Both the position numbers and the translations under genes were made by a program. A DNA stretch of 64,000 nt, taken from Clostridia bacterium. Its GTDB lineage: Bacteria; Bacillota; Clostridia; TANB77; CAG-508. Location: contig JAFWIH010000018.1 in assembly GCA_017533795.1 (NCBI GenBank), positions 9,105 to 73,104 of the forward strand. The letters are read 5' to 3'. Shown one piece after another: positions 4,294 through 47,168 of this stretch. Numbering within the stretch: position 1 is the stretch's first letter; each line of letters starts with the position of its first letter. The notes under the pieces were generated by a model. It was not told the DNA's origin and did no database searches. It saw only the letters and a program-made list of their open reading frames with translations.

Positions 4294-4300
4294 TTCAAAA

Positions 4301-4329
4301 TTGTCAAAAGGGACGGATTATGATGACAA
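4301..4329 (+). repeat. 29-nt hairpin motif TTGTCA-AAAGGGACGGATTATGA-TGACAA (family member)
   Basis: 23/29 identical to 60808..60836 by position-by-position comparison. Lies 8 nt after the stop at 4293. Confidence 0.6.
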
Positions 4330-4347
4330 AGAATCGAGGAGAATATA

Positions 4348-5448
4348 ATGGAAAGAAATAAAAAAATAGTGCAAACAAGCATTTTAGGAATTGCTGTTAA
4401 TATAGTTTTAGTAGTATTTAAAGCAACCATAGGAATTATAGTAAATTCCATTGCAATTGTTTTGGATGCAGTTAACAACTTAAGTGATGCATTATCCTCA
4501 ATAATAACTATAATAGGAACAAAATTATCAGAAAAAGCGCCAGATAAAAAACATCCATATGGACATGGCCGAATTGAATACTTTACATCAATAATAATAG
4601 CAATATTAGTTTTAGCAGCAGGTGTAACTGCACTTAAAGAATCTGTAGAAAAGGTAATAAATCCTGAAACTGCAAATTACAGTATTGTATCACTTGTAAT
4701 TGTTGCTGTAGCAGTAATTGTAAAATTTTTCTTTGGAAGATATGTAAAAAGTATTGGTGAAAAACTTAATTCACAAAGCTTAGTGGCATCTGGAACAGAT
4801 GCATTTATGGATTCAATTTTATCATTATCAACACTGATAGCAGCAATTATAAGCTTAATATGGCATGTCAGTTTAGAAGGATATTTAGGAGTAATAATAG
4901 CAATTATTATCATAAAATCAAGCATAGATATCTTAAGAGAAACAATAACTATAATGATAGGAATAAGGGCAGATTCAGAGCTTACTAACAAATTAAAAGC
5001 AAGAATTATAAAATTTGATGAAGTACAAGGAGTATATGACCTTGATTTACATAGCTATGGCCCATCAAAGATAGTAGGATCAGTCCATATTCAAGTAAGG
5101 GATGATATGACAGCAAAAGAGATTCATAAGTTAACAAGAACAATAACTATGACCATATTGCAAGAATTTGGTATAATATTAACAATTGGAGTCTATGCAG
5201 CAAACGACAAAGGTGAGTTTGGAGAAATAAAGGAAACACTTGGAACTATTATAAAAGATTATAAAGAAATAATTCAAATGCACGGATTTTATGTTGATGA
5301 AGACACAAAAAATATATTCTTTGATTTAATTATAGATTTTAAAGCAGAAAAGCCAGATGAAATTCAACAAGAAGTAATAAAAAAGATAAAAGAAAAATAT
5401 CCACAATATGATTATAATGTAATTTTAGACCTAGATGTAAGTGATTAA
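4348..5448 (+). CDS. cation diffusion facilitator (CDF) family metal efflux transporter
   Basis: Six predicted TM helices, LSDALSS and HPYGHGRIEY motifs, C-terminal cytoplasmic domain. RBS gaggag lies 8 nt upstream. Confidence 0.9.
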   Translation: MERNKKIVQTSILGIAVNIVLVVFKATIGIIVNSIAIVLDAVNNLSDALSSIITIIGTKLSEKAPDKKHPYGHGRIEYFTSIIIAILVLAAGVTALKESVEKVINPETANYSIVSLVIVAVAVIVKFFFGRYVKSIGEKLNSQSLVASGTDAFMDSILSLSTLIAAIISLIWHVSLEGYLGVIIAIIIIKSSIDILRETITIMIGIRADSELTNKLKARIIKFDEVQGVYDLDLHSYGPSKIVGSVHIQVRDDMTAKEIHKLTRTITMTILQEFGIILTIGVYAANDKGEFGEIKETLGTIIKDYKEIIQMHGFYVDEDTKNIFFDLIIDFKAEKPDEIQQEVIKKIKEKYPQYDYNVILDLDVSD

Positions 5449-5468: not shown

Positions 5469-6404
5469 ATGGAAAAGAAAGTATCAGTAGTAATACCAAT
5501 GTATTATGAAGAAAAAGTAGTACAGGAATGCTATAAACGAGTAAAAGAAAACCTTGTAAAAATTGAAAATTATGAAAATGAAATCATTTTTATTAATGAT
5601 GGAAGTAAAGACAAAACTTTAGAAATTTTAGAAAATATTGCAAAGCAAGATTCAAATGTAAAAATCATTTCTTTTTCAAGAAATTTTGGACATCAAGCGG
5701 CAGTAACTGCTGGGCTTCAGTATGTAACAGGTGATGCAATAGTAATTATTGATGCTGACCTTCAAGATCCACCAGAGTTAATTCCAGAAATGATAAAACT
5801 TTGGGAAGATGGTAATGAAGTAATTTATGGTAAAAGAAAATCAAGAGAAGGAGAAAGTGCATTCAAATTATTTACTGCAAAAATGTTTTATAAAACACTA
5901 AATGCACTTTCAGACGTAGAAATTCCTAAAGATACAGGAGACTTTAGATTAGTAGACAGAAAAGTAGTAGATACAATAAATTCTATGCCAGAACATAACA
6001 AATTTTTAAGAGGATTATTTAGCTGGGTAGGATACAAACAGATACCATTTGAATATGAAAGAAAAGAAAGATTTGCTGGAGAAACAAAATATCCACTAAA
6101 GAAAATGCTAAAACTAGCAGCGGATGGAATAATAAGCTTTTCAACTAAACCGTTGAAAATTTTAGGACTCCTTGGAATGTTTGCAATAATAGTTTCTGTG
6201 CTATTATTAATTTATGCTATTTTATCATATATATTAAAACTAAATCATCTATCAGCTGGTTGGACCTCAATAATGGTTGCTATTACTTTTTTTGCAGGAG
6301 TACAACTAACATCAATTTGGATTATATCAGAATATATAGGCAGAATATATGATGAAACAAAACAAAGGCCACAATTTATTATTGACAAAAAGATTAATTT
6401 GTAG
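5469..6404 (+). CDS. family 2 glycosyltransferase (polyprenyl-phosphate sugar transferase type)
   Basis: VSVVIPMYYEE, NDGSKD, IDADLQDPPE motifs and two C-terminal TM helices, typical of the ArnC/DPM1-like GT2 architecture. Confidence 0.85.
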   Translation: MEKKVSVVIPMYYEEKVVQECYKRVKENLVKIENYENEIIFINDGSKDKTLEILENIAKQDSNVKIISFSRNFGHQAAVTAGLQYVTGDAIVIIDADLQDPPELIPEMIKLWEDGNEVIYGKRKSREGESAFKLFTAKMFYKTLNALSDVEIPKDTGDFRLVDRKVVDTINSMPEHNKFLRGLFSWVGYKQIPFEYERKERFAGETKYPLKKMLKLAADGIISFSTKPLKILGLLGMFAIIVSVLLLIYAILSYILKLNHLSAGWTSIMVAITFFAGVQLTSIWIISEYIGRIYDETKQRPQFIIDKKINL

Positions 6405-14993: not shown

Positions 14994-15070
14994 GCTCCCT
15001 TAGCTCAGTTGGTTAGAGCAACCGGCTCATAACCGGTAGGTCCAAGGTTCGAATCCTTGAGGGAGCACCA
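14994..15070 (+). tRNA. tRNA with CAT anticodon (elongator Met, or Ile2 if lysidinylated)
   Basis: Cloverleaf folded by hand: acceptor GCTCCCT/AGGGAGC, anticodon stem ACCGG/CCGGT, loop CTCATAA, T-arm GGTTCGAATCC, encoded CCA. The C4-C5-C6 acceptor resembles Ile2-type tRNAs. Confidence 0.9.
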
Positions 15071-15079
15071 ATTTTATAT

Positions 15080-15165
15080 GGGTAGGTGGCCGAGTGGCTA
15101 AAGGCGGCAGACTGTAAATCTGTTCTCATTTGAGTACGAAGGTTCGAATCCTTCCCTGCCCACCA
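15080..15165 (+). tRNA. tRNA-Tyr (GTA)
   Basis: Acceptor GGGTAGG/CCTGCCC, anticodon loop ACTGTAAATC context, long variable arm, GGTTCGAATCC T-loop, encoded CCA. Confidence 0.9.
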
Positions 15166-15199: not shown

Positions 15200-15232
15200 A
15201 TAAAGTACACAGTTTAGTAAAATTAACATAAA

Positions 15233-15261
15233 TTGACCATTAATATAGAATATGGTATAAT
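15233..15261 (+). promoter_or_regulatory. extended -10 promoter of the small foreign ORF 15318..15509
   Basis: TTGACC, 17 nt, TATAAT, with TG at 15253..15254 (TGGTATAAT). Confidence 0.65.
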
Positions 15262-15317
15262 ATATGTATAGACCAAATGGTGATCTATTGTGCTATAAGC
15301 ACAGAGAGGAGAAGACA

Positions 15318-15509
15318 ATGCCTAATGTCTTCATGGAGACGTTTAGGTCTCCGTTTGGGAAGGATACTCCCGAGCAAGCAGAGAAAGTGCTTAGCATCAT
15401 AAGGGAGAACCATCCTGCATCAAAGGGGTGGAGAGAGCTTGACGCTGGGGTTGAGCTCCACGATGATGGAAAGTGGTATGCTTGGCGCAAGCATGAGCAT
15501 TTCCGTTAG
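15318..15509 (+). CDS. hypothetical small protein (63 aa), compositionally foreign
   Basis: Own extended -10 promoter, gagaggag RBS 7 nt before the ATG, strong terminator. 97 G+C in 192 nt by hand count. No family recognised. Confidence 0.6.
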   Translation: MPNVFMETFRSPFGKDTPEQAEKVLSIIRENHPASKGWRELDAGVELHDDGKWYAWRKHEHFR

Positions 15510-15527
15510 ACCATCATTACCCACTCC

Positions 15528-15583
15528 GAAGAGAGCTCCTCATAGTCCAGTTTTTGGACTTTGAGGAGCTCTCTTCTTTTTTT
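15528..15583 (+). terminator. long GC-rich hairpin terminator of the foreign small ORF
   Basis: GAAGAGAGCTCCTCA..AGTCCA-gttttt-TGGACT..TGAGGAGCTCTCTTC followed by T7. Confidence 0.85.
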
Positions 15584-15678
15584 GTCTAATTTTTTTTATA
15601 TAGTAAAAAATTTAAAATTCTTAAGTTTTCTTTAAGGTTTAAAAACTAAAATAAAGAAAAACGAAAAGGAGAACAATT

Positions 15679-27835: not shown

Positions 27836-30800
27836 ATGCTAGAATTAAAAGACATAAAAAAAACATACGTATCAGGGGATGAAAAAGTAGAGGCTTTAAA
27901 GGGAATTAATTTAAAATTTAGAGAATCAGAATTTGTATCAATTTTAGGTGCGAGTGGTTGTGGTAAGACCACTTTATTAAACATTATAGGAGGATTAGAT
28001 AGGTACACATCTGGTGATTTAATAATAAATGGTAAGTCAACAAAAGACTTTAAAGATAGAGATTGGGATGCATATAGAAACTATAAAGTTGGCTTTGTAT
28101 TTCAAAGCTATAATTTAATAAGCCATCAAACAATTCTTTCAAATGTTGAACTTGCTTTAACAATAGGAGGAATATCTAAAAAGGAAAGAAAAGAAAGAGC
28201 AATAAAGGCATTAGAGGAAGTAGGTTTAAAAGAACAAATACACAAAAAACCAAATCAACTATCTGGTGGACAAATGCAAAGAGTTGCAATTGCAAGAGCT
28301 TTAGTTAATAATCCAGACATAATTTTAGCAGATGAACCAACAGGAGCATTAGACACAAAAACTAGTGTGCAAGTAATGGAAATTTTAAAGAAAATTTCAC
28401 AAGACAAATTAATTGTAATGGTTACACATAATCCAGATTTAGCAGAAAAATATTCAAGTAGAATAATAAGAATTTTAGACGGTAATATTACAGCAGATTC
28501 AAATCCTATTAATGAAGATGAAAAATTTGAGTACAAGCAGACAAATGAAATAGGAAAAACAAAAATGAAATTTTGGACTGCTTTTAGACTAAGTTTAAAC
28601 AACTTGCTTACCAAAAAAGGCAGGACAGTACTGGTTGCTTTTGCAGGCTCAATCGGGATAATAGGAATTGCTCTTGTCCAATCTGTCTCAAACGGATTTC
28701 AGGCATACGTAGATAAAATACAAGAAGATACTTTAACATCATATCCACTTACAATAATGCAAGAAAGTACCGATGTTGTAAGTGCGTTACTATCAATGGC
28801 AACTGAAGAAAAAGAAGAAAATGATTCAAATGAAATAAAAGAAGAACAGTATATATCTAAAATGCTAGATAGTTTAAGCACTAATGACCTAAAAAGTTTT
28901 AGAGATTATTATGAAGAACATTATAACGAAATAGAGCAAGATATTTCTTCAATAGATTATTCATATAGTGTGCAACCAATGATTTATACTGTTGATGCGA
29001 CCAAAAAACTTGCTAAAATAAATCCAAGTGATTTGTTTAGTTCATTTATGGGAGGCACTTCAAGTATTATGGGAGCTCAAGCATCTATTTTTGAGCAAAT
29101 GCTTGATGACAAAGAAAGCTTAAATGATTCATATGATGTTTTAGCTGGCAGATGGCCAGAAAATTATGATGAAATGATAATCTGTTTATCGGACAGAAAT
29201 AGCATATCAGACCTACTTGTATACTCTTTAGGACTAAGAAATACGGAGGAATTAACAGACATAGTTACAAAAATAATGAGTGGAGAACAGGTTGACTTAA
29301 AGAATGAACCAATGTCATTTTCATATGAAGATTTAATGAATGTAGAATTAAGATTATTAATGCCAACTGATTTATATAAATATAATGAAAGATATGATAT
29401 ATATGAAGACATGAGCAAAGATGATGCATACTTACAAGGACTATATGGCAATGCTGTAAAATTGAAAATTGTTGGTATAGTTACAGCAAAAGAAGGAGTA
29501 ACATCAGCAGCATTAGAACCTGGGGTATCATATACTGGCAAATTAATAGACTATATTATTGACTATTCATCTAAATCTACAATAGTAAAAAAACAACTAG
29601 AAAGTGATGAAGTAGATGTTATATCAGGCAAAAGATTTGACGCTAAGAAAAATGAGCTAGGTTTAAATTTTCAAGATTTAGTAAGCATTGATAGCAAAAA
29701 ACTTCAAAGTGCTTTTAATATAAATATAGACCAAAAATCAATAGAACAGCAAACAGCAGGATACATGACTGAAATATCAAATGCAATAACAACAGATATA
29801 GCACCTGCAAAACAAGCAATATTGAGTAACTTAAATGATTTTGCAAATGAAATGTTCAAAAGTATAAATGGAACAATAAGTATTTCTGAAATAGAAGAAT
29901 ACACCCAAAACTATTTAGAAAGTGCAGGACCTACGAATGCCTTGAATATACTTGAGGAACAGTATGTAGTACCAAAGGATGTATATAAAACTATGTATTC
30001 AGGTCTTTTAAAAGCATTATTACAGGTATATATAACAGGATATGTAGCAGTTGATCCATCACTTACAACAGACCCTGCCAATCCAACAGCAGCTGTAGTG
30101 GACAGTATGATTTCTCCTGTTATTACACAATATATAAATAGTGCAGCAATACAAGAAACTGCAAATAAAATGGCAAGTGGAATGACTGAGGCTGTTATGA
30201 AAAAAACTGTTTTAAGTAAAGTGGGTGAACTTACAGGAAGGCTTACACAAGAGTTTGCAAGTGCTTTTAATGTTGACCAAGAAAAAATAGCAAGTGCATT
30301 TCAGTTAAAAATAACTGAAGATGAAATAACAAGAATTGTTACTGCAATGATGACAGATAATGAGTCAAATGCAAAAACAAACCTAATTGCTCTAGGATAT
30401 CAAAACAAGGAAGAACCAACATATATATCATTTTACTTTAATAGTTTTGATGGAAAAGAACATTTTATAGATTTTATAAATAAATATAATGAAAAACAAG
30501 AAGCTGATGGTAATGAGGACAAAGTAATTAATTTTACAGACACAACAGGAATACTAATGGGTTCTGTAAAAACAATTGTAAATGCTGTAACATATGTACT
30601 GATTGCATTTATATCAATTTCACTTGTTGTTTCATCAATAATGATAGGAATAATAACATATATTTCTGTATATGAAAGAACAAAGGAAATAGGAATACTA
30701 AGAGCAATTGGAGCTTCAAAGCATAACATATCTTCAATATTTAATGCGGAAACATTTATAATTGGTTTGCTTTCTGGATTATTTGGAATAGGAGTTACAT

Positions 30801-30991
30801 ATGCGGTAATTCCAATAATAAATAAGGTATTACATGTATTTACAGGCAATATTCCACTTAATGCAACATTTTATCCACAAAATGCTGTAATTTTGGTAAT
30901 ACTTAGTGTGATTCTTACTTTAATTGGAGGACTAATTCCAGCAAGAGCAGCATCTAAAAAGGATCCAGTTATTGCATTAAGAACAGAATAG
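27836..30991 (+). CDS. fused ABC transporter ATP-binding protein / FtsX-type permease with a large extracytoplasmic domain
   Basis: 1051 aa. N-terminal [35 protein letters not shown]-terminal FtsX domain (ERTKEIGILRAIGASK...DPVIALRTE). Confidence 0.9.
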   Translation: MLELKDIKKTYVSGDEKVEALKGINLKFRESEFVSILGASGCGKTTLLNIIGGLDRYTSGDLIINGKSTKDFKDRDWDAYRNYKVGFVFQSYNLISHQTILSNVELALTIGGISKKERKERAIKALEEVGLKEQIHKKPNQLSGGQMQRVAIARALVNNPDIILADEPTGALDTKTSVQVMEILKKISQDKLIVMVTHNPDLAEKYSSRIIRILDGNITADSNPINEDEKFEYKQTNEIGKTKMKFWTAFRLSLNNLLTKKGRTVLVAFAGSIGIIGIALVQSVSNGFQAYVDKIQEDTLTSYPLTIMQESTDVVSALLSMATEEKEENDSNEIKEEQYISKMLDSLSTNDLKSFRDYYEEHYNEIEQDISSIDYSYSVQPMIYTVDATKKLAKINPSDLFSSFMGGTSSIMGAQASIFEQMLDDKESLNDSYDVLAGRWPENYDEMIICLSDRNSISDLLVYSLGLRNTEELTDIVTKIMSGEQVDLKNEPMSFSYEDLMNVELRLLMPTDLYKYNERYDIYEDMSKDDAYLQGLYGNAVKLKIVGIVTAKEGVTSAALEPGVSYTGKLIDYIIDYSSKSTIVKKQLESDEVDVISGKRFDAKKNELGLNFQDLVSIDSKKLQSAFNINIDQKSIEQQTAGYMTEISNAITTDIAPAKQAILSNLNDFANEMFKSINGTISISEIEEYTQNYLESAGPTNALNILEEQYVVPKDVYKTMYSGLLKALLQVYITGYVAVDPSLTTDPANPTAAVVDSMISPVITQYINSAAIQETANKMASGMTEAVMKKTVLSKVGELTGRLTQEFASAFNVDQEKIASAFQLKITEDEITRIVTAMMTDNESNAKTNLIALGYQNKEEPTYISFYFNSFDGKEHFIDFINKYNEKQEADGNEDKVINFTDTTGILMGSVKTIVNAVTYVLIAFISISLVVSSIMIGIITYISVYERTKEIGILRAIGASKHNISSIFNAETFIIGLLSGLFGIGVTYAVIPIINKVLHVFTGNIPLNATFYPQNAVILVILSVILTLIGGLIPARAASKKDPVIALRTE

Positions 30992-31000
30992 TGGTATAAT
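30972..31000 (+). promoter_or_regulatory. extended -10 promoter of ORF 31050..31364
   Basis: TTGCAT (inside the last codons of the ABC gene), 17 nt, TATAAT with an upstream TG (GTGGTATAAT). Confidence 0.6.
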
Positions 31001-31049
31001 ATAGTTATGTACTGTAGGAAGCCAGATTCAACAAAGGAGGAAACGCACC

Positions 31050-31364
31050 ATGAATACACTGGCTAACGGTCTTGGAAGAGCTTCTAAAGAGCTAATTCTC
31101 GGCGCAGACGAGGAGATCCTCGAAGGGGTTCGTGACTACTTTGCTCAAAAGGGGCAGAAAGTCGTCTTCGTATATGAAGATGATTGCCTCAAGGAGGACT
31201 GTGACGTCGTCATCTACCAGATTGACTGGGAGAAGGCGTCAGTGTATCTTTCTCCATTCAAGGCAGATGACTACTGTCCCAACGTAGTCATTGCACTTAA
31301 CTGCCTTTCGGCAGAGCAGGTTATTGATCAGATTTGTGGATTTTTGGAGGCGATTAACTTCTAA
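31050..31364 (+). CDS. hypothetical acidic protein (104 aa), compositionally foreign
   Basis: Extended -10 promoter at 30972..31000, aaaggagg RBS, hairpin terminator. 48 G+C in the first 100 nt by hand count. No family recognised. Confidence 0.6.
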   Translation: MNTLANGLGRASKELILGADEEILEGVRDYFAQKGQKVVFVYEDDCLKEDCDVVIYQIDWEKASVYLSPFKADDYCPNVVIALNCLSAEQVIDQICGFLEAINF

Positions 31365-31388
31365 ATAAAAGTACTTTCCAAGACCAAA

Positions 31389-31440
31389 AGAGTAGCTCTT
31401 AGTATGGTTTAATAACCTGCTTCGAGCTACTCTGTTTTAT
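31389..31440 (+). terminator. hairpin terminator of ORF 31050..31364 with a 25-nt loop
   Basis: AGAGTAGCTC (31389..31398) / GAGCTACTCT (31424..31433), then GTTTTAT. Confidence 0.6.
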
Positions 31441-31452
31441 ATATTAACTAAT

Positions 31453-31504
31453 AAAAAAGTAGCATCGCTTGAGTTAGGTTATTAAACCATACTAAAGCGA
31501 TGCT
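31453..31504 (-). terminator. hairpin terminator of the TMK-like gene with a 24-nt loop
   Basis: AGCATCGCTT (31461..31470) / AAGCGATGCT (31495..31504). T-run on the minus strand (plus-strand AAAAAA at 31454..31459). Confidence 0.6.
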
Positions 31505-31527
31505 TTTTGGTAGTTCTGGACTATGAG

Positions 31528-32211
31528 CTAGAACTCAATGGCATTAAGCCAGAGCTTTGCCTGCTCATAGGTGCCCTCAATTGACATCCAGGTTGTGTCA
31601 ATGAGGAAGTTCTTGCAGCCCTGGAAGGCAGCAAGATCTGGGTTGCCGGCAAACAGTTCGTTAAAACCACGACGGGTTTCAAGTTCCTGAGTATGAATGT
31701 ACTCAGGATACTCGAACTTGTCTGCATCAGGGTCGTCCTTAATCCTGTCATAAGCGACAGGAGAAGCACATACCAGGTGGATCATTGCATCACACTTCGG
31801 AAGCAATTGAACCTGGTTCAGCTGAGCAATTTCTGCATAGCTGAATCCCTGCACAGCTCCATGGACGAAGCTGTCAAACCAACCACGCTGGCTGATAACC
31901 AAATCGTACTCGTCAAGCCACTCTTCCAGCTGGGCTGCGAAGATGTGGTTGTCGAGAGCGAAGAGGAGCCTGTCCGAATAGCTCAGCTTGAGCTTCGGAA
32001 GCACCTCAACACCAAGGTGCTTGTCATACGGCAGATGTGCCGTCTTGACCTTAAGCCCCTGTGCACGGTAGTACTCTGCCAAAGACTCAACCAAGTGAGT
32101 CTTTCCAGACCCATCGAGACCAGTTACTACTAGCCACTTACCCTTACTCATGTTGACCTCCTTGTCATCAAGGGCGATATTCATAAAACTACCATTAGCC
32201 AGATTCTTCAT
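31528..32211 (-). CDS. divergent thymidylate-kinase-like P-loop protein, compositionally foreign
   Basis: TGLDGSGKTH P-loop. SDRLLFALDNHIFAAQLEEWL..YDLVISQRGWFDSFVHGAVQG parallels the TMK LLFAADR...DRY..S..AYQ region, but with the DRY and TREPGG positions substituted. Two candidate starts each have an SD: 32211 (MKNLANG, homologous to the start of the convergent gene) and 32151 (MSKGKW). Confidence 0.65.
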   Translation of the reverse strand: MKNLANGSFMNIALDDKEVNMSKGKWLVVTGLDGSGKTHLVESLAEYYRAQGLKVKTAHLPYDKHLGVEVLPKLKLSYSDRLLFALDNHIFAAQLEEWLDEYDLVISQRGWFDSFVHGAVQGFSYAEIAQLNQVQLLPKCDAMIHLVCASPVAYDRIKDDPDADKFEYPEYIHTQELETRRGFNELFAGNPDLAAFQGCKNFLIDTTWMSIEGTYEQAKLWLNAIEF

Positions 32212-32265
32212 GATGTCTCCTTTCATGCTGCGTTTATACTGGCTTGCAAAACATTGCATACTATA

Positions 32266-32294
32266 ATTATACCACAAAATTATGTAAATGTAAA
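32266..32294 (-). promoter_or_regulatory. extended -10 promoter of the TMK-like gene
   Basis: Minus strand: TTTACA, 17 nt, TATAAT, preceded by GTGG (GTGGTATAAT). This is identical to the 10-mer at 30991..31000. Confidence 0.6.
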
Positions 32295-32368
32295 ATTACA
32301 CATTGGTTTATAAGTCTTGAAAATCAATAAAAAAATATATATAATATAAAAAAAGTGGGAGGTATATT

Positions 32369-33244
32369 ATGATAGATTTACATATGCATACATCTTATTC
32401 AGATGGAACAGATTCATTAACAGAAATACTACAAAACTGTGAAAAAAAACAATTATCTGTAATATCTATTACAGATCATAACAATTGTGATGCTTATTTT
32501 GAAATGGAGAAATTAAAAATTTCTGATTATTATTCTGGGAAAATAATACCTGGAATTGAGCTAAATACAAAAGCAGATGGTGTCCCAATTGAAATATTAG
32601 GATACAACATAAATTACAAAATAATGAATGAACTTGCAAAAGAAGTGTATCTTTCACCAGATAAAAGAAATGAATTAGAATTTGAAAGGTTAGTAAAAAA
32701 ATGTAAAGATTATGGCATTGTTTTAGATGAAGATGTATTAGAACAATTTGATAAAAATGATTTTGCTTCAGTTGCAATTCATAAAAGTATAACAAATCAT
32801 CTAGAGAATAAAGCCAAAATAAATGAAAGATCATGGAATAGTAGTAGAGATTTTTATAGAGATTATATGTCAAATCCAAATACTCCATTATATGTTGAAA
32901 TGGAAGATTTGGTTCCAGATTTAGATACTGCTATAAATATAGTAAAAAAAGCAGGAGGACTAGTGTTTATACCACATATCTATGAGTATAGAGACAACAC
33001 TCCAAAAGTATTAGAGTATATTTTAAATAATGGAAGACTAGATGGAATAGAATGTTATTATACAACATTTACAGAAGAACAACATGAGTATATTTTAAAT
33101 TTGACAAAAGGAAAAAATCTATATATTTCTGGTGGCTCAGATTATCATGGAAAAAGAAAACCAGATACCGATCTAGGCATTGGACATGGAAATTTAAATA
33201 TTCCAAAAGAAATACAGGAACCATGGGCAAAGTATATAAATTAA
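32369..33244 (+). CDS. PHP-domain phosphoesterase
   Basis: MIDLHMHTSYSDGT N-terminal PHP motif. GGSDYHG near the C-terminus. Confidence 0.85.
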   Translation: MIDLHMHTSYSDGTDSLTEILQNCEKKQLSVISITDHNNCDAYFEMEKLKISDYYSGKIIPGIELNTKADGVPIEILGYNINYKIMNELAKEVYLSPDKRNELEFERLVKKCKDYGIVLDEDVLEQFDKNDFASVAIHKSITNHLENKAKINERSWNSSRDFYRDYMSNPNTPLYVEMEDLVPDLDTAINIVKKAGGLVFIPHIYEYRDNTPKVLEYILNNGRLDGIECYYTTFTEEQHEYILNLTKGKNLYISGGSDYHGKRKPDTDLGIGHGNLNIPKEIQEPWAKYIN

Positions 33245-33334
33245 CAGAAAAAATAAAAACTGACCACTGAGTATAATGACTTTTTTTTACTTAAAGTATA
33301 TAATATGGAAAAAAGTTAAGGAGCATGTGGAATA

Positions 33335-35062
33335 ATGAAAAAGGTTAAAGAGCTTGAGGCTATAGAATTTAATAATATTAAAGAAATTATTTATAATTCT
33401 GCAAAAAAATATAACGAAAAAACAGCATTTATAATAAAGAATAAAAAAGGAAAAGAAATAAGTTACACTAATGTAAGTTATATGGATTTTTTAGATGACG
33501 TAAATAATTATGGTACAGGACTATATGCTATGGGACTAAAAGGAAAGAGAATTGCTATAGTTGGAAAGAATAGATATGAATGGGTTTTATCATATATAAG
33601 CAATATGCTAGGTAGAATAGTATCTGTTCCACTTGATAAAGACCTACAATTAGAAGAATTAGAAAATTCATTAGTAAGAAGTAAAGCAGATGCAATAGTT
33701 TTTGATCCTAAATTGCTTAAAGAAGTAGAGCAAATAAAACAAAATAATAAAACTCAAATTAAAGAGTATATCTGCATGGATAGCATAGAAGGATATAAAA
33801 ATGTACATGAAATAAAAGAACAAGGAAAAGAAAAATTAAAACAGGGATATACAGATTTTAAAGATTGTAAAATAGATGAAAAAGAAATGAGTATATTATT
33901 GTTTACGTCTGGAACAACCTCAAAATCAAAAGCAGTAATGTTATGTCAAAAAAATATTGCGTCAAATATTTATGCAATGCAATGTGTAGAGGATGTAAGA
34001 AGCACTGATACTAATATGGCTTTTTTACCATTACATCATATTTTTGGTTCTGTTGGGTTATTAATGATGTTAGCCTGTGGAGTAACTACAGCATTTCCTG
34101 ATGGCTTAAGATATGTAAAGCAAAATATGCAAGAGTATAAGGTATCTATTTTTGTGGTAGTTCCATTATTAACAGAAGCTATTTATAAAGCAGTATTAAA
34201 AGAGATAGACAGACAAGGAAAAACAAAATTAATTAATGTTGTTATAAAAGTTAGTAATTTATTAAGGAAGTTACATATAGACATTAGAAGAAAACTATTC
34301 AAGCAAGTGCTAGAAGGACTAGGAGGAGAATTACGACTAATAATATCTGGCGGGGCTGCTGCAGATCCGGAAGTAATAAAAGGGTTTAGTAACTTTGGAG
34401 TAGAAACTGTTCAAGGGTACGGATTAAGTGAAACAGGTCCTGTTATTGCTGCAGAAAATTACTTTTATCAAAGACCAGGCTCAGTTGGCAAAACATTAAA
34501 AAATGTTAAAGTAGAAATAGCAAATAAAGATGAAAAAGGTATTGGAGAAATAAAAGTAAAAGGCCCTAATATAATGCTTGGGTACTATGAGATGGAAGAC
34601 TTAACAAAGGAGTCAATACGTGATGGCTGGTTTTATACTGGGGACTTAGGATATTTTGATAACGAAGGATTTTTATTTATTTCAGGAAGGAATAAAAACT
34701 TAATTGTTTTAAAAAATGGCAAAAAAGTATTTCCAGAAGAATTAGAAACTCTTATAAATAGATTGGAACTAGTTAGTGAATGTATGGTTTTTGGAATGCC
34801 AAACGAAAATGATAAAAATGATGTAAAACTTTCGGTAAAAGTAGTATATGATGACGAAATTATTAAGGAAAAATATAGCAAAAATAGTGATGATGAATTA
34901 TATGATGCACTATGGAACGAAATAAAAGAAATAAATGCAACATTTCCAAGATATAAACATGTTAAGAATTTAATTGTATCACATGAAGAACTAATTAAAA
35001 CAACAACTAAAAAAGTTAAAAGATTTGAAGAATTAGAAAGAATCCTAAAGACAAGTAAATAG
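33335..35062 (+). CDS. AMP-dependent long-chain acyl-CoA synthetase (FadD-like), paralog 3
   Basis: LFTSGTTSKSKAVMLC, GYGLSETGP, TGDLGYFDNEGF. Colinear with 20410..22143. Confidence 0.85.
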   Translation: MKKVKELEAIEFNNIKEIIYNSAKKYNEKTAFIIKNKKGKEISYTNVSYMDFLDDVNNYGTGLYAMGLKGKRIAIVGKNRYEWVLSYISNMLGRIVSVPLDKDLQLEELENSLVRSKADAIVFDPKLLKEVEQIKQNNKTQIKEYICMDSIEGYKNVHEIKEQGKEKLKQGYTDFKDCKIDEKEMSILLFTSGTTSKSKAVMLCQKNIASNIYAMQCVEDVRSTDTNMAFLPLHHIFGSVGLLMMLACGVTTAFPDGLRYVKQNMQEYKVSIFVVVPLLTEAIYKAVLKEIDRQGKTKLINVVIKVSNLLRKLHIDIRRKLFKQVLEGLGGELRLIISGGAAADPEVIKGFSNFGVETVQGYGLSETGPVIAAENYFYQRPGSVGKTLKNVKVEIANKDEKGIGEIKVKGPNIMLGYYEMEDLTKESIRDGWFYTGDLGYFDNEGFLFISGRNKNLIVLKNGKKVFPEELETLINRLELVSECMVFGMPNENDKNDVKLSVKVVYDDEIIKEKYSKNSDDELYDALWNEIKEINATFPRYKHVKNLIVSHEELIKTTTKKVKRFEELERILKTSK

Positions 35063-37278: not shown

Positions 37279-37764
37279 ATGTTAAGTATAATTGTAGCAA
37301 AAGCAAAAAACAATATAATAGGAAAAGATAATAACTTAATTTGGCATTTGCCGGAAGACTTAAAAAGATTTAAACAAATTACAACAGGACATACAATAAT
37401 AATGGGAAGAAAAACATTTGAATCTTTAGGTAGAGTGCTACCTAATAGGTTTCATGTTGTTTTGTGCAATGATATGAAAATGGATGTAAATAATGAAAAT
37501 GTAGAAGTTCTAGAAGATATATCTATGCTAGATAAATACATAAACAGCAAAGAAGAAAGCTTTGTAATAGGCGGAGCAACTATGTATAAACTTTTAATGC
37601 CTTATTGTACAAAAATGTATATAACAGAGATTGAAAAAGATTTTGAGGGAGATGTCTCATTTCCAGAAATAGATAAAAATATTTGGAAAGAAGTCAGTAG
37701 GGAAAAAGGCCCAAAAGATGGCATAAATGATTTTAATTATGAATATGTAGTATATGAAAAATAA
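37279..37764 (+). CDS. folA: dihydrofolate reductase
   Basis: IIGKDNNLIWHLPEDLKRFKQITTGHTIIMGRKTFESLG. ATG at 37279 follows a caaggag RBS. Confidence 0.9.
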   Translation: MLSIIVAKAKNNIIGKDNNLIWHLPEDLKRFKQITTGHTIIMGRKTFESLGRVLPNRFHVVLCNDMKMDVNNENVEVLEDISMLDKYINSKEESFVIGGATMYKLLMPYCTKMYITEIEKDFEGDVSFPEIDKNIWKEVSREKGPKDGINDFNYEYVVYEK

Positions 37765-37770
37765 AAAAGT

Positions 37771-37794
37771 GGAGCTCCATATTATAGGAGCTCC
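37771..37794. terminator. bidirectional hairpin between folA and the foreign ORF 37802..38068
   Basis: GGAGCTCC-atattata-GGAGCTCC, flanked by AAAAAAGT on the left and TTTCCCTTT on the right. Confidence 0.65.
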
Positions 37795-37801
37795 TTTCCC
37801 T

Positions 37802-38068
37802 TTATAGAGAGAATTCGATGAGCTTTGACTCACCAGCCAAGCTCCCATAAGGATAAAACCTTGTGTAGGCGGTATCCACACTTTCACCTACCTTGTTAAA
37901 CCATACGGAATTGAACTTTCCTTCAATTCCCTTGAGATAGTACTCAGTGTGGGATGAGTACTCTTTTATGATGGCAACCTCATAGAGGCAGCCCTTTCTC
38001 AAGACAGAGGGACTACTAAAACTACCATAGTAGCTTCCAGTCCCTCCATTATAGCGAACAATAATCAT
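37802..38068 (-). CDS. hypothetical small protein (88 aa), compositionally foreign
   Basis: agaaagga RBS 5 nt before the ATG. Shares the GGAGCTCC hairpin terminator with folA. 42 G+C per 100 nt by hand count (37861..37960). No family recognised. Confidence 0.55.
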   Translation of the reverse strand: MIIVRYNGGTGSYYGSFSSPSVLRKGCLYEVAIIKEYSSHTEYYLKGIEGKFNSVWFNKVGESVDTAYTRFYPYGSLAGESKLIEFSL

Positions 38069-38160
38069 GATGTTCCTTTCTCTTCTATTGAGGGATTATA
38101 CAGAATGACAATATGCCATTCATATATATATTATAACACAAATTAACATAAAACTCAATT

Positions 38161-43818: not shown

Positions 43819-44826
43819 ATGGATGAAGAGCTGCTTGAATTGAAGAAGCAAGCACTGCAAGAAATTGCAAATGCACAGGATTCTTCAGAAATTGTACAGA
43901 TTAAAAGTAAGTATTTGGGAAAGAGAAGTCAGATTTCCAGAGTAATGTCTTCACTCAAGAATTATTCAATAGAAGAGAGAAGAACACTTGGTCAGATATG
44001 CAACACAATCAAGAATGAGATTGTGGAAGCATTGAAGGCTAAAAACAATCAACTTATATCTGAAACAAGCTATAGCATTGATATTACGATGCCAGTTGAT
44101 GAAGATAGAGGTAGCTTGTCTCCTATTACAATTGTAGGAAACGAGGTATGCGAAATCCTTGAAAAAATGGGGTTCGCGATTGTCTCTGGACCTGAGATTG
44201 AGGATGAGTATCATAACTTTGATGCACTTAACATCCCATCTACACATCCTGCACGCGATATGCAGGATACATATTGGCTTGGTTCACACAAACTGCTAAG
44301 AACTCATACTTCTCCATGTCAAGTTAGGGCAATGGAAAAGTATGGAGCTCCACTCAGGATAGCTGCTCCTGGACGCTGCTTCAGGAATGAGGATATAGAT
44401 GCAAGTCATGAAAACACATTCTTCCAACTGGAAGGAATGTGTATTGATAAAAACATATCTATTCCTAACCTGATTTATGTTATGAAGTCAATCTTGAGTG
44501 AGATTTTTGATCAAGAGGTTCAGGTAAGATTACGTCCGGGTTACTTCCCATTTGTTGAGCCTGGATTCGAATTGGATATTAAGTGCTTGATATGTGAAGG
44601 AGCAGGATGCTCAACATGTAAGGGGAGTGGCTGGATAGAACTTTGCCCATGTGGAATGATTCATCCAAATGTGCTTAGAATCAATAACATTGATCCTAAT
44701 GAATACTCTGGATTTGCATTTGGCATTGGTCTTACAAGACTAGCCATGATGAAATATCACATAAATGATATTCGAGTATTCAATACATGCAACTTGGAGG
44801 AATTGGAACAGTTCGGTATCGTATAG
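43819..44826 (+). CDS. pheS: phenylalanine--tRNA ligase alpha subunit
   Basis: HPARDMQDTYW, LRTHTSPCQVR, FRNEDIDASH, class II motif 3 region GFAFGIGLTRLAM. Confidence 0.93.
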   Translation: MDEELLELKKQALQEIANAQDSSEIVQIKSKYLGKRSQISRVMSSLKNYSIEERRTLGQICNTIKNEIVEALKAKNNQLISETSYSIDITMPVDEDRGSLSPITIVGNEVCEILEKMGFAIVSGPEIEDEYHNFDALNIPSTHPARDMQDTYWLGSHKLLRTHTSPCQVRAMEKYGAPLRIAAPGRCFRNEDIDASHENTFFQLEGMCIDKNISIPNLIYVMKSILSEIFDQEVQVRLRPGYFPFVEPGFELDIKCLICEGAGCSTCKGSGWIELCPCGMIHPNVLRINNIDPNEYSGFAFGIGLTRLAMMKYHINDIRVFNTCNLEELEQFGIV

Positions 44827-44840
44827 AGAGGAACGAATCT

Positions 44841-47168
44841 ATGCTGATTTCGTGTAACTTGCTGAAAAGTTACCTTTCCTCTGATACGCTAATTGACTGG
44901 CTGGGAATATGGGAACTTTTTACCATATCATCTGCAGAAGTCGAGAGAGTTGAAGAGAAAGGTAAAAACACTTCAGGTGTAATTGTGGCAAAAGTAACCA
45001 ATGTTGCAAAAAACACACCAGATGTAAGGTTGAATCTGCTAACTGTAGACATTGGAAACAGAGAGATACAAATTATCACATCTGCTACCAATGCATATAT
45101 TGGCATGATTACAGCATGTTGCCCAGAAAATGGTATGGTCAATGGCAAAAGAATTACAAAGCTAGAAATCCTAGGAATCATGAGTGAAGGTGTGTGTGTA
45201 TCTGAAAAAGATCTGGGAATATCTCAGGAACACACATTGATGATTGACCTGCCAAAAGAATACATGGTCGGTAGGGATATAAAGGAATATATCAATCTTG
45301 ATGATATAATTGTCGAGATTGATAACAAATCTTTAACCAACCGTCCAGATCTTTGGGGACATTACGGCATTGCTAGAGAAATTGCAGCAATCACCGGAGC
45401 AAAACTTAATAAGCTTGTAGACCCAATTATTAAGGATACTGAGGATTCAGTTAAAACTCTTACTGCTACTGTACACAGTGATGCTGTGAACAGATATGCA
45501 GCAATAAAGGTTTCAGGACTGAATCAAAAATTGGTAGACCTTAATATGAAACTAATGATGCACTACTGTGGATATGAATGCTCCACATTGTCTGATTTGG
45601 TTTCAACATATACTACTCTAGAGTATGGATTGCCAGTTGTTGTTGTCAATGATGATGGAATAGAGAATATCTCTATTAAAATGCATCAAGATAATGAGCA
45701 AAATTGCATTGAACTAAATTCAGACAATTTAGTTGTATATGCAAATGGCAATCCCATCGAAGTAGCTGGAGTCTGTGTGCTTGAGAGTTCAGTTGCAACC
45801 GCTGATTGTAGTTCCATTCTAATTGAAGTTGCTAATTATGATGCGACTACTATTAGAAAAAGCTCTATTTCTCTACACAATCGAAACGACATGAGCATTA
45901 GGCACGAAAAAAGTCTTGACCCGGAAATGGTGCTGACATCATTGTATAGGTGTCTGCAGATTTTACAGACTTTGTGCCCATCAGCATGTGTTTCTTCTAA
46001 CCTTGTTGATGTTTATAAAAACAAGCAAAAGCAAAGGGTGATCACTCTTTCTAAGAAGAAACTTTCAAGTTACCTTGGGTTCAACATGGATGATTCCATG
46101 GTTGTGAGCATTCTCAACTCACTAGACATGGATGTTATAGTTGAACAAGATGCGTATGTCGTTACAATTCCAACATATCGAGCAACAAAAGATATTGAAC
46201 AAGACGCTGATGTAATAGAGGAAATTTCCAGAATTTATGGCTATGATAATTTCGAGCCACAGCCACTGGAATTGCAACTTGATACCATGCGCCATGCAAC
46301 ATCTGAGTACTCTATTGAATATAAGGTTAAGGAAGTACTTGCTTCTAAGTATAACCTTCATGAGGTTCATTCCTATATTTGGTATGACGATGATTTCTTG
46401 AAGAGCATCGGAGCAGATAAGTCTGATTGCATGGCAATCGTAAATAAGACTTCTAACCGTTATATTAGGGATGAACTAGGAATGTCTGTGCTAGCTTCAA
46501 CCATTTACAATGCAAGGAAATACTCAAGGTATGGAGTTTTCGAAATTGGTACTATATACAATTCCAATATTCCAAAGAAACAGCTTTGTATACTTCTTTG
46601 TGATTCGGCAAAGATGGTTGGAGAAACCTATCAACATGTGAAGAATATCGTATATGGACTAATTAGGAATCTGACAAATGAGAGTGTCACATTCTTGAAG
46701 GCTGATGCTATTAATTCATATATGGATAATGCTAATGTGTTAAATATCTATATTAATGAATTGTGCATTGGTCAGATTGGAATTGTTATTCCAAGTATTA
46801 CAAATAGGTATGCTAAGACGGCAGCAGTAGTTATGGCAGTAATTGATTTCGAGAAATATCTTGAAATTGATGTTACTAGCTATGATTATCAGAAACCGCC
46901 AAAGTATCCTGTAGTTACTTTGGACTATACAATTTCATTGAAAAAGAATGAGAACTATCAGATGTTGGAAAACTGGCTTTCTAATTATTCTTCTCCATTA
47001 CTCAAATCATACAATTTGATTGATAGTTACGATAATGGACAGAAAAGGAAGCTAACAATTAGGTTCAAGATTTCTCACAGTGATAGGACATTGCGTTCAG
47101 AAGAGATTAGGGGGTTCGCGGAAGAGTTGCTTTCCTACCTCGGACGTCAGTTCGAAGTAGAAACATAA
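44841..47168 (+). CDS. pheT: phenylalanine--tRNA ligase beta subunit
   Basis: N-terminal tRNA-binding domain, NRPDLWGHYGIAREIAA, B5 region, C-terminal FDX-ACB-like domain. ATG at 44841 follows an agagagg RBS. Confidence 0.9.
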   Translation: MLISCNLLKSYLSSDTLIDWLGIWELFTISSAEVERVEEKGKNTSGVIVAKVTNVAKNTPDVRLNLLTVDIGNREIQIITSATNAYIGMITACCPENGMVNGKRITKLEILGIMSEGVCVSEKDLGISQEHTLMIDLPKEYMVGRDIKEYINLDDIIVEIDNKSLTNRPDLWGHYGIAREIAAITGAKLNKLVDPIIKDTEDSVKTLTATVHSDAVNRYAAIKVSGLNQKLVDLNMKLMMHYCGYECSTLSDLVSTYTTLEYGLPVVVVNDDGIENISIKMHQDNEQNCIELNSDNLVVYANGNPIEVAGVCVLESSVATADCSSILIEVANYDATTIRKSSISLHNRNDMSIRHEKSLDPEMVLTSLYRCLQILQTLCPSACVSSNLVDVYKNKQKQRVITLSKKKLSSYLGFNMDDSMVVSILNSLDMDVIVEQDAYVVTIPTYRATKDIEQDADVIEEISRIYGYDNFEPQPLELQLDTMRHATSEYSIEYKVKEVLASKYNLHEVHSYIWYDDDFLKSIGADKSDCMAIVNKTSNRYIRDELGMSVLASTIYNARKYSRYGVFEIGTIYNSNIPKKQLCILLCDSAKMVGETYQHVKNIVYGLIRNLTNESVTFLKADAINSYMDNANVLNIYINELCIGQIGIVIPSITNRYAKTAAVVMAVIDFEKYLEIDVTSYDYQKPPKYPVVTLDYTISLKKNENYQMLENWLSNYSSPLLKSYNLIDSYDNGQKRKLTIRFKISHSDRTLRSEEIRGFAEELLSYLGRQFEVET

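Follow-up and report, generated by a model that had tools for sequence, protein, structure and literature searches.

Pairing of the two ends of an mRNA with each other is rare in bacteria. In the mRNAs of hok/Sok-type (type I) toxins, the 3' end folds back onto the 5' translational activator and inhibits it. In Bacillus subtilis, the hbs mRNA carries a 14-bp interaction between its 5' and 3' untranslated regions (UTRs) that modulates cleavage by RNase Y and couples stability to initiation (Braun, Durand, Condon 2017, PMC5737220), and in Staphylococcus aureus the 3'UTR of the icaR mRNA pairs with the Shine-Dalgarno (SD) region, blocks initiation and creates a substrate for RNase III (Ruiz de los Mozos et al. 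2013, PMC3868564). In the present study, we analysed a 64-kb stretch of a Clostridia bacterium genome (GCA_017533795.1, contig JAFWIH010000018.1; hereafter the window, in whose coordinates all positions are given) and, within it, a G+C-rich island at 30991-32294 that holds two convergent genes, one for a kinase of the thymidylate kinase (Tmk) fold and one for a small protein, between an ABC gene and a PHP gene. In our judgement the island is probably a resident module of two paralogous genes that arose by inverted duplication, each copy with a structured, G+C-rich mRNA, and not an insertion.

Like hbs, the island belongs to the Firmicutes, and its messages are predicted to have a long-range helix joining the start and the end of the mRNA, a structured 5' region and a strong Shine-Dalgarno sequence, with a proposed protection from RNase that would be linked to initiating ribosomes. 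It differs from hbs in that the 5' arm lies in about codons 5-16 and not in the 5'UTR, the helix reaches up to ~20 bp, the coding sequences (CDS) are G+C-rich and hyper-folded, and the architecture, known here from sequence, is common to two paralogues. With icaR it shares an intramolecular 5'-3' pairing in a low-GC Gram-positive as a putative element of post-transcriptional control, but the icaR 3'UTR is long and targets the SD, whereas the 3'UTRs of the island cassettes measure 17-38 nt, the SD sits within a loop and the pairing is directed at the early CDS. As in hok/Sok-type systems, the full-length mRNA would be closed end to end, highly folded and metabolically stable, and would have to open for translation; unlike there, the genes encode a kinase of 228 aa and a soluble protein of 104 aa rather than a small membrane toxin, and neither an antisense RNA nor a processing step is known for the island. 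The size and solubility of both products and the lack of a significant Rfam match speak against a hok-like type I toxin.

The island is a mirror image of itself at its ends. The 10-mer GTGGTATAAT opens both of them (at 30991-31000 and, as its reverse complement, at 32266-32275), AAGCCAG is present at 31019-31025 and 32239-32245, and CTGGCTAA follows the start codon in both genes. The stop codon of the ABC gene (TAG, 30989-30991) overlaps the first base of the left shell, as we call the promoter, 5'UTR and first codons at either end, so that the -10 box abuts the stop. All of these letters had been picked out by eye in a sequence-only reading of the window, and all are where that reading had placed them. 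Its further claim, that the ends are homologous expression signals, survives a computed comparison: the left shell and the reverse complement of the right shell align locally with a score of 71 (z = 13.9 against shuffles), while the best of 76 control alignments, in which each shell was set against 38 upstream regions from elsewhere in the window, scored 34, which places the likeness of the ends beyond chance. The terminators are homologous too, as had been supposed from their shared loop, with TTAGTATGGTTTAATAACCT identical in both (z = 12.1 against shuffles). The -35-like element of the small-gene promoter sits within the last codons of the ABC gene and falls below the pass mark in a simple consensus scan; the extended -10 is kept in all homologous cassettes. 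The contrast in composition reported earlier is equally real, with G+C of 0.47-0.54 within the island versus 0.25-0.31 outside, and G+C at third codon positions (GC3) of 0.52-0.58 in the island genes versus 0.12-0.16 in the flanking genes. Since the junctions were found again in many independent assemblies (ENA, Logan, NCBI), the island is not an assembly artefact.

The sequence-only reading held that the two ends enclose different cargoes. On the contrary, the two proteins are homologous. Profile-profile comparison (hhalign) of the small protein with the kinase gives three collinear segments, at the N-terminus (E 5.6e-6), at strand 3 (E 0.1) and at the C-terminus (E 6.2e-4), the C-termini matching end to end (LSxEQ..DQ...FLEAINF against MSIEGTYEQAKLWLNAIEF). 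After trimming of the shared leader, the match still reaches E 1e-4 and 2.5e-4, a broader alignment of the small protein against the kinase gives a probability of 87.6%, and within the related locus L014 a plain BLASTP search of the small protein against the kinase returns E 0.002. The L014 alignment is telling in its gaps, for one of 4 residues falls exactly at the P-loop (GAD----EE against GLDGSGKTH) and one of 32 residues at the nucleoside monophosphate (NMP)-binding helices. The small protein thus has no P-loop, no NMP-binding helices and no LID but retains the leader, strands 1-3, helix 1 and a C-terminal strand plus helix; its predicted order of strand, helix, four strands and helix fits the kinase core minus the substrate-binding parts. 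We regard the 104-aa protein as a deletion derivative, that is, a truncated paralogue, of the neighbouring kinase, and most likely it serves as a pseudo-enzyme partner or regulator of the latter. Pfam, PADLOC, NCBIfam and PHROGs hold no family match for it, and the family is a very narrow one, for among 1.84 billion representatives it forms 8 clusters (50% identity), with no relative in JGI metagenomes and one species only in the GTDB genomes. Beyond the 8 clusters, the hidden Markov model (HMM) of the small family has one marginal match (E 4e-5), to 28 residues of an unrelated 3,267-aa protein.

Paralogy of the proteins together with that of the shells makes the mirror symmetry the trace of an inverted duplication of a whole transcription unit, one copy of which was reduced. 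The duplicated, inverted scaffold that had been suggested from the letters therefore finds support in paralogous proteins as well as in homologous shells and terminators. As in pseudoenzyme paralogues born of tandem or inverted duplication, a dead copy that keeps the structural core stands beside its active parent; unlike them, this copy is without more than half of the protein and yet keeps the parent's full apparatus of expression and mRNA structure. The duplication itself is ordinary evolution, and what is unusual is the inherited mRNA architecture and the clade-wide G+C-rich hyper-folding. Elsewhere, in another Clostridia metagenome-assembled genome (MAG; locus L028), a second full-length, G+C-rich Tmk-like paralogue (4131-4769, + strand) lies 1.2 kb downstream of the first, which means that the kinase gene has been duplicated more than once.

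The kinase is predicted to be a divergent NMP kinase of the thymidylate kinase fold. It passes the gathering score of PF02223 (37.5 bits against a cut-off of 27), its AlphaFold2 (AF2) model has a predicted local distance difference test (pLDDT) score of 89, and the top 50 fold matches in the PDB are all thymidylate kinases (E down to 1e-10; template modelling (TM) score 0.7-0.83 on the target chains). Common to it and Tmk (PF02223, TIGR00041) are the P-loop GLDGSGKT, the overall fold and a LID-like R-x-x-D...DKFE segment; set apart from Tmk it is by an identity of only 13-23%, by a score of 45 bits for the TIGR00041 dTMP-kinase equivalog, below the cut-off of 83.25, by QRG in place of DR(Y/F), by private motifs (DRLLFALDN and DDPDADKFE) and by the adjoining PHP gene. 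The family has more than 200 homologues and its own invariant motifs GLDGSGKT, DRLLFALDN, QRGxxDSFVHG and DDPDADKFE. Across 37 homologues, the Walker A motif (G-x-x-x-x-G-K-[ST]) after strand 1 is invariably GLDGSGKT, and the DR(Y/F/H) at the end of strand 3 is replaced by (S/T)QRG(W/F), whereby the Arg is kept and the Asp has become Gln. The Tmk-like character given to this P-loop protein by the sequence-only reading, including the replaced DRY position, is thus well founded. In PHROGs the only match is "thymidylate kinase", and in Pfam the window kinase has no match to Zeta_toxin (PF06414).

As to where its translation starts, gene callers also take an in-frame ATG (at 32226) five codons upstream of the MKNLANG start, and ~60 nt further down, in frame, there is a second ribosome site, a feature that recurs in the kinase mRNAs of the cassettes compared; its ATG (32152-32154) starts a canonical kinase of 208 aa, as in distant homologues; the N-terminal extension of ~20 residues is predicted to be disordered. 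An open reading frame (ORF) of 146 aa lies antisense inside the kinase gene (31693-32133, + strand), and similar antisense ORFs occur in many homologues, most likely as a by-product of G+C-rich sequence with few stop codons.

The likeness of the shells may be explained by what they encode. In 11 cassettes from seven lineages, two helices recur, here called P1 and P2 (Table 1). P1 encloses the first ribosome site: over the 11 cassettes 93% of cells are paired, versus 18-43% with the partners slid, and it appears in the whole-mRNA minimum free energy (MFE) folds of 10 of them. Its outer extension holds three pairs with compensatory changes on both sides, and where L017 and L225 read AGCCGG, the A-to-G change keeps the pairing through G.U. 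In the kinase mRNA, P1 has an inner hairpin CAUGA/UCAUG, with the first Shine-Dalgarno sequence (SD1) in the loop and the first start codon (AUG1) paired. The invariance of the rare Leu codon CTG points to a constraint on P1 as RNA rather than on the peptide.

P2 joins about codons 5-16 (CDS ~+13-23 to ~+28-48) with the whole 3'UTR before the terminator in 11/11 cassettes. It is ~6-20 bp long (6-15 pairs in whole-mRNA folds), its duplex energies run from -12 to -25 kcal/mol with p <= 0.024 against shuffles in every cassette, and in 8/11 it occupies the best site in the entire CDS. Without any constraint, the global MFE folds of all 11 mRNAs (440-860 nt) contain it, at pair probabilities of 0.87-1.00. 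In the small-gene mRNA of the window, an energy of -19.6 kcal/mol (RNAduplex) was matched by no other CDS window and by 0/500 shuffles, and the global MFE fold contains the helix at a pair probability of 1.00. The arms, moreover, change together. Between the two window genes, GGUAGUU/AACUACC of the kinase answers to GGUCUUGG/CCAAGACC of the small gene, and between lineages we found the pairs GGUCUUGGAA/UUCCAAGACC, AGUCUUGGAA/UUCCAAGACU, GGUAGUUUUG/CAAAACUACC, GUCUUGAU/AUCAAGAU and GAUGGGAAU/AUUCCCAUC, at least five arm sequences with matching partners. Distant kinase homologues give no consistent signal of 5'-3' closure, so that the closure is confined to the leader-bearing subclade.

At the terminators the tip (A)GGUUUAAUAACCU (31399-31419 and 31475-31495) is largely conserved across lineages while the stems are wholly replaced; the stems of T1, for instance, differ from those of L001 although the tip is identical. 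The tip also occurs in the terminators of L225, and it is kept in L223, where a single terminator is present. A simple terminator scan reported none of these, their bulged stems and loops exceeding its limits, and the hairpins are clear in whole-mRNA folds. Rfam searches of the 5'UTRs and terminators gave no significant match, only sub-threshold hairpin matches resembling microRNAs on the terminator pair, and a riboswitch or other known RNA family in the shells was dropped on that account.

Table 1. Features of the island, its PHP neighbour and two further G+C-rich cassettes (window coordinates)
Feature	Position	Strand	Description
Small-gene promoter	30972..31000	+	weak -35-like TTGCAT 30972-30977, 17-nt spacer, extended -10 TGgTATAAT 30992-31000
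P1, small-gene mRNA	31011..31070	+	AGCCAG 31020-31025 pairs with CUGGCU 31059-31064 (codons 4-5)
P1 outer extension, small-gene mRNA	31011-31015 with 31066-31070	+	ACUGU pairs with ACGGU; predicted
Small-gene SD	31033-31040	+	AAAGGAGG, with AUG 31050-31052, in the P1 loop
Small gene	31050..31364	+	104 aa, truncated kinase paralogue; GC3 0.52
P2 5' arm, small-gene mRNA	31067..31084	+	codons 6-12; RNAduplex with 3'UTR
P2 3' arm, small-gene mRNA	31368..31386	+	3'UTR, between stop and terminator; contains TTCCAAGACC
Intrinsic terminator T1, small gene	31390..31438	+	stem GAGTAGCTC/GAGCTACTC, conserved tip UAUGGUUUAAUAACCU, then U-tract
Intrinsic terminator T2, kinase	31451..31503	-	stem AGCATCGCT/AGCGATGCT; tip same as T1
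P2 3' arm, kinase mRNA	31507..31527	-	3'UTR; contains AACUACCA
Kinase gene	31528..32214	-	predicted Tmk-fold P-loop kinase, 228 aa from MKNLANG; Pfam PF02223; GC3 0.58
P2 5' arm, kinase mRNA	32180..32195	-	codons 7-12
P1, kinase mRNA	32197..32244	-	AGCCAG (32239-32244, + strand CTGGCT) pairs with CUGGCU (32197-32202, + strand AGCCAG)
Kinase promoter	32266..32294	-	TTTACA, 17-nt spacer, TATAAT with TG extension; 11/12 consensus matches (consensus scan)
PHP gene	32369..33244	+	RNase AM / 3',5'-bisphosphate phosphatase type; Pfam PHP; GC3 0.12, host-like
G+C-rich cassette	15230-15585 (ORF 15318-15509)	+	63 aa, GC3 0.54; promoter TTGACC-17-TGgTATAAT, strong terminator
G+C-rich cassette	37755-38150 (ORF 37802-38068)	-	88 aa, GC3 0.47; promoter TTGAGT-17-TGtTATAAT, own terminator

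Folding is not limited to the ends. Against dinucleotide shuffles, the two complete island mRNAs fold with z = -7.3 and -8.7. Permutation of synonymous codons, which leaves the protein and the codon usage the same, gives z = -8.2 for the kinase CDS of the window, -3.8 to -8.2 for kinases of the close clade and -2.4 to -7.8 for the small genes, versus -0.4 to -2.4 for neighbouring host genes. The excess extends to distant low-GC Clostridia, whose kinases (22 species) have z between -0.9 and -9.4, at or below -2.5 in 21/22; the homologues of Bacilli (+0.5 and +0.9) and ten high-GC or archaeal ones (-1.3 to +1.4) do not show it. The sense strand exceeds the antisense strand in stability in 10/10 cases, usually with more G.U pairs.

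The composition follows the same pattern. Across the cassettes, the kinase has a GC3 of 0.45-0.58, the small gene one of 0.43-0.56 and the flanking genes one of 0.12-0.20. Among the island genes, the closest pairs show a synonymous divergence (dS) of ~0.9-1.5, and for all other pairs dS exceeds 2 or cannot be calculated; a steady GC3 at such dS means that the composition is maintained while the individual synonymous sites change. A G+C excess of 0.07-0.21 is found for the kinase in 32/36 low-GC Clostridia species (0.06 or less in the other four) and in none of the Bacilli, archaeal or high-GC homologues. Furthermore, no close kinase homologue in a mid- or high-GC genome is among the 80 best loci kept, which argues against repeated import.

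A PHP homologue stands directly beside the kinase in 35/36 low-GC Clostridia species-level loci, usually upstream and on the same strand, and beside none of the Bacilli, archaeal or high-GC kinases in species-level genomes. The PHP protein of the window gives full-length NCBIfam matches to RNase RNM and to a nucleoside bisphosphate phosphatase, both below the curated cut-offs; a search of the literature on the kinase-PHP pair found nothing relevant. In L001 and L014, kinase and small gene lie between the same ABC/FtsX and PHP genes as in the window, with identities to the window of 67-69% for the kinase and of 68% (L001) and 43% (L014) for the small protein. In L017 (the sheep-jejunum MAG RGIG5831), the kinase is again beside PHP and tail-to-tail with the small gene, several further genes separate the small gene from the ABC gene, and an A+T-rich gene of 148 aa (5773-6219, - strand) lies between the kinase and small-gene terminators, which makes the two cassettes separable units. 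Two close relatives, L223 and L225, are without the small gene and still have the kinase beside PHP, and in all distant relatives, too, the kinase occurs without it.

These observations leave little of the foreign island proposed by the sequence-only reading. The kinase has ordinary orthologues at a conserved position, the very outcome which that reading had named as telling against itself, and the pair holds the same site between ABC and PHP genes in diverged lineages with saturated synonymous sites. The search for an empty site had a divided result: the small gene is indeed missing in L223 and L225, and no relative, among the close ones and the 36 low-GC Clostridia loci, is without the kinase. 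An obligatory pair of kinase and inhibitor, as had been considered, does not agree with the many kinases that stand alone. Nor are the shells a reusable scaffold for other cargos, for a stricter shell pattern matched only the same gene pair (in a known MAG) when 185,579 species genomes were scanned, JGI metagenomes gave no match to it, and a loose pattern (AAGCCAG...ATG...CTGGCTAA) gave ~119 unrelated chance matches in GTDB genomes. There is no integrase or transposase within 5 kb of the island and no flanking direct repeat. A defence module, finally, receives no meaningful match from PADLOC, in which the small protein has none at all and the kinase only P-loop-local or generic ones (E >= 1e-4).

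The probable course of events may be sketched as follows. The ancestral unit would have been a Tmk-fold NMP kinase gene, the conserved partner of an RNase AM-like PHP gene, and would have been duplicated in inverted, tail-to-tail orientation with its promoter, 5'UTR, leader codons, CDS, 3'UTR and terminator. One copy would then have shed the P-loop, the NMP-binding helices and the LID and become the fast-evolving 104-aa protein, while the shells would have stayed alike because they are paralogous and, encoding mRNA structure, under selection as RNA. Each mRNA would start ~5-10 nt before P1, which would present SD1 and AUG1 in its loop, and P2, between about codons 5-16 and the 3'UTR, would turn the mRNA into a closed loop whose ends are both fixed in helices. 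Such a compact mRNA should resist the single-strand-specific and the 5'-end-dependent RNases of Firmicutes, and translation from the first ribosome site should open P1 and P2, by which stability and expression would be coupled; both paralogues would inherit identical control. The architecture suggests a nuclease-resistant mRNA whose use would be gated by translation. With respect to the products, PHP enzymes of the RNase AM type act on 5'-phosphorylated substrates, and it is therefore plausible that the kinase feeds a 5'-phosphate-dependent phosphoesterase, the PHP protein.

Several observations weigh against this interpretation. Of five AF2 models of the small protein, a single one is confident, and Foldseek found for it no match at E < 0.001, only weak similarities of the thioredoxin/GST kind, so that structure offers no independent confirmation of the paralogy; likewise, the small-family HMM retrieves no kinase at library-wide significance from the 1.84 billion representatives. 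The antisense strand has strongly negative z-scores as well, by which a cause at the level of DNA keeps a small probability. Alifold on the codon alignment gives a structure conservation index (SCI) of 0.22 with z = -1.4, the CDS helices beyond P1, P2 and the terminators not being conserved; a specific conserved CDS fold was dropped for this reason, and selection, if real, would act on folding in general, an unusual target. Transcript ends, in vivo folding, half-lives and translation starts are all predictions from sequence. Lastly, the flanks are mosaic. Between the window (27836-35062) and L001, the ABC gene is 90% and the AMP-binding gene 77% identical, L001 and L223 share 88% identity in the latter gene, in the kinase the window goes together with L223 (82%), and the kinase tree conflicts with the flanking genes. 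This suggests recombination breakpoints near the island, and some recombination at the locus has occurred.

The mosaic flanks with the conflicting kinase tree, the folding of the antisense strand beyond its permuted controls and the inverted repeats that bracket the coding regions would all suit a DNA-level process, either GC-biased gene conversion or frequent recombinational exchange at the locus, by which G+C would stay high, or inverted repeats that act as inversion sites, to which we give a small chance of being right. Biased conversion, however, predicts no folding excess under codon permutation, and the excess in G+C and in folding is absent from the neighbouring genes. The greater stability of the sense strand with its more numerous G.U pairs, the use of G.U pairs and bulges by P1 and P2, and the lack of a recombinase gene nearby likewise point away from it. 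A module of the toxin-antitoxin kind, with a zeta-like kinase as toxin, the small acidic paralogue as inhibitor and mRNAs closed as in hok-type systems, also seems improbable. It would be in keeping with a kinase that adjoins a small acidic protein, with the 5'/3' closure and extreme folding that are a hallmark of hok-like toxin mRNAs, and with a weak Zeta_toxin match (E 0.008) of the second paralogue in L028. Yet the kinase lacks the small gene in at least 30 species plus the close relatives and is accompanied by PHP instead (35/36), the window kinase itself does not match Zeta_toxin and has Tmk fold matches throughout, an antisense RNA gene is not evident, and the small gene evolves fast. 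A zeta/epsilon pair was set aside on the same two grounds, namely the missing PF06414 match and the kinases without a small gene. Hardly credible, at last, is a mobile or horizontally acquired cassette with terminal inverted repeats and two unrelated foreign genes (a kinase-inhibitor or defence pair), for the G+C far above that of the host, the inverted-repeat ends, the left boundary exactly at the ABC stop codon and the patchy presence of the small gene among close relatives are outweighed by the synteny with PHP in 35/36 species, the occupation of one site by the pair in lineages with saturated dS, the paralogy of the proteins, the absence of close mid- or high-GC homologues from the 80 best loci, shells that carry no other cargo in the genomes and metagenomes searched, the lack of mobility genes and direct repeats, the merely generic P-loop matches in PADLOC, and z-scores of -5 to -9 under synonymous permutation, for which a foreign origin has no explanation. 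Of the earlier reading as a whole, the real ends and the duplication stand, and the foreign, mobile and unrelated cargo does not.

The island is not unique, for in a survey of all 62 ORFs of the window two further self-contained, G+C-rich and hyper-folded small genes came to light (Table 1). The one at 15230-15585 lies directly after two tRNA genes (14994-15162), its transcript has z = -8.5, and its 63-aa ORF has no family match; the one at 37755-38150 has z = -8.3 for its CDS under synonymous permutation and encodes a nearly orphan protein with one homologue at 54% identity. Two adjacent genes on the + strand (43819-44826 and 44787-47168; 335 and 793 aa), whose sizes are typical of PheS and PheT, have an intermediate GC3 of 0.33-0.34 with z = -3.9 and -5.4. 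Elsewhere in the window, ORFs range from ~0.11 to 0.24 in GC3 with a median z of -0.7, except for an artefact overlapping a tRNA and one ORF of 58 aa. It would thus seem that the island is one member of a class of "armoured" mRNAs spread over the genome. In its widest form, which we consider bold and rather unlikely to hold in full, the idea would be that a clade of A+T-rich uncultured gut Clostridia keeps a small set of genes as armoured mRNAs, in which synonymous selection holds G+C at ~50% and codons are arranged for compact folding; the set in the window would consist of the kinase, its mini-paralogue and at least two orphan cassettes (15.3 kb and 37.9 kb), with end closure in the kinase clade, and kinase and PHP would form a pathway of RNA decay or nucleotide recycling. 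If true, armoured mRNAs would outlast conditions under which ordinary A+U-rich mRNAs are destroyed, for instance the action of ribotoxins or abortive-infection RNases, dormancy, or germination, and a kinase that enables RNA decay or nucleotide recycling would have to be encoded by a gene that stays expressible during RNA degradation.

When a G+C-rich island turns up in an A+T-rich genome, horizontal transfer is the routine interpretation. In this case, by contrast, a GC3 of ~0.5 in a host of 0.15 is kept in an orthologous, syntenic gene over dozens of species despite synonymous turnover, and this, with a folding excess that withstands permutation and is absent in other phyla, points to selection on whole-mRNA structure that overrides mutational bias. 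Such selection is debated in bacteria, and the locus would make it directly testable. The locus would also provide a natural case of predicted 5'-3' mRNA closure, supported by covariation and common to two paralogues. It would further show cleanly how a pseudo-enzyme can arise together with the whole regulatory apparatus of its parent, and it would add an uncharacterised family of kinases in tight linkage with PHP enzymes of the RNase AM-like type.

Additional genes were noticed around the kinase and PHP in other loci. In L020 (2872-3891, - strand) and L033 (1881-2894, - strand), a HIT-domain protein of 337-339 aa with weak CwfJ-C-like matches is encoded divergently from PHP, its gene having a G+C of 0.39 versus 0.30 for the whole locus, and a phosphodiesterase gene of family PF01663 lies near the kinase and PHP in several loci. 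Both suggest a neighbourhood of nucleotide- or RNA-end-processing genes.

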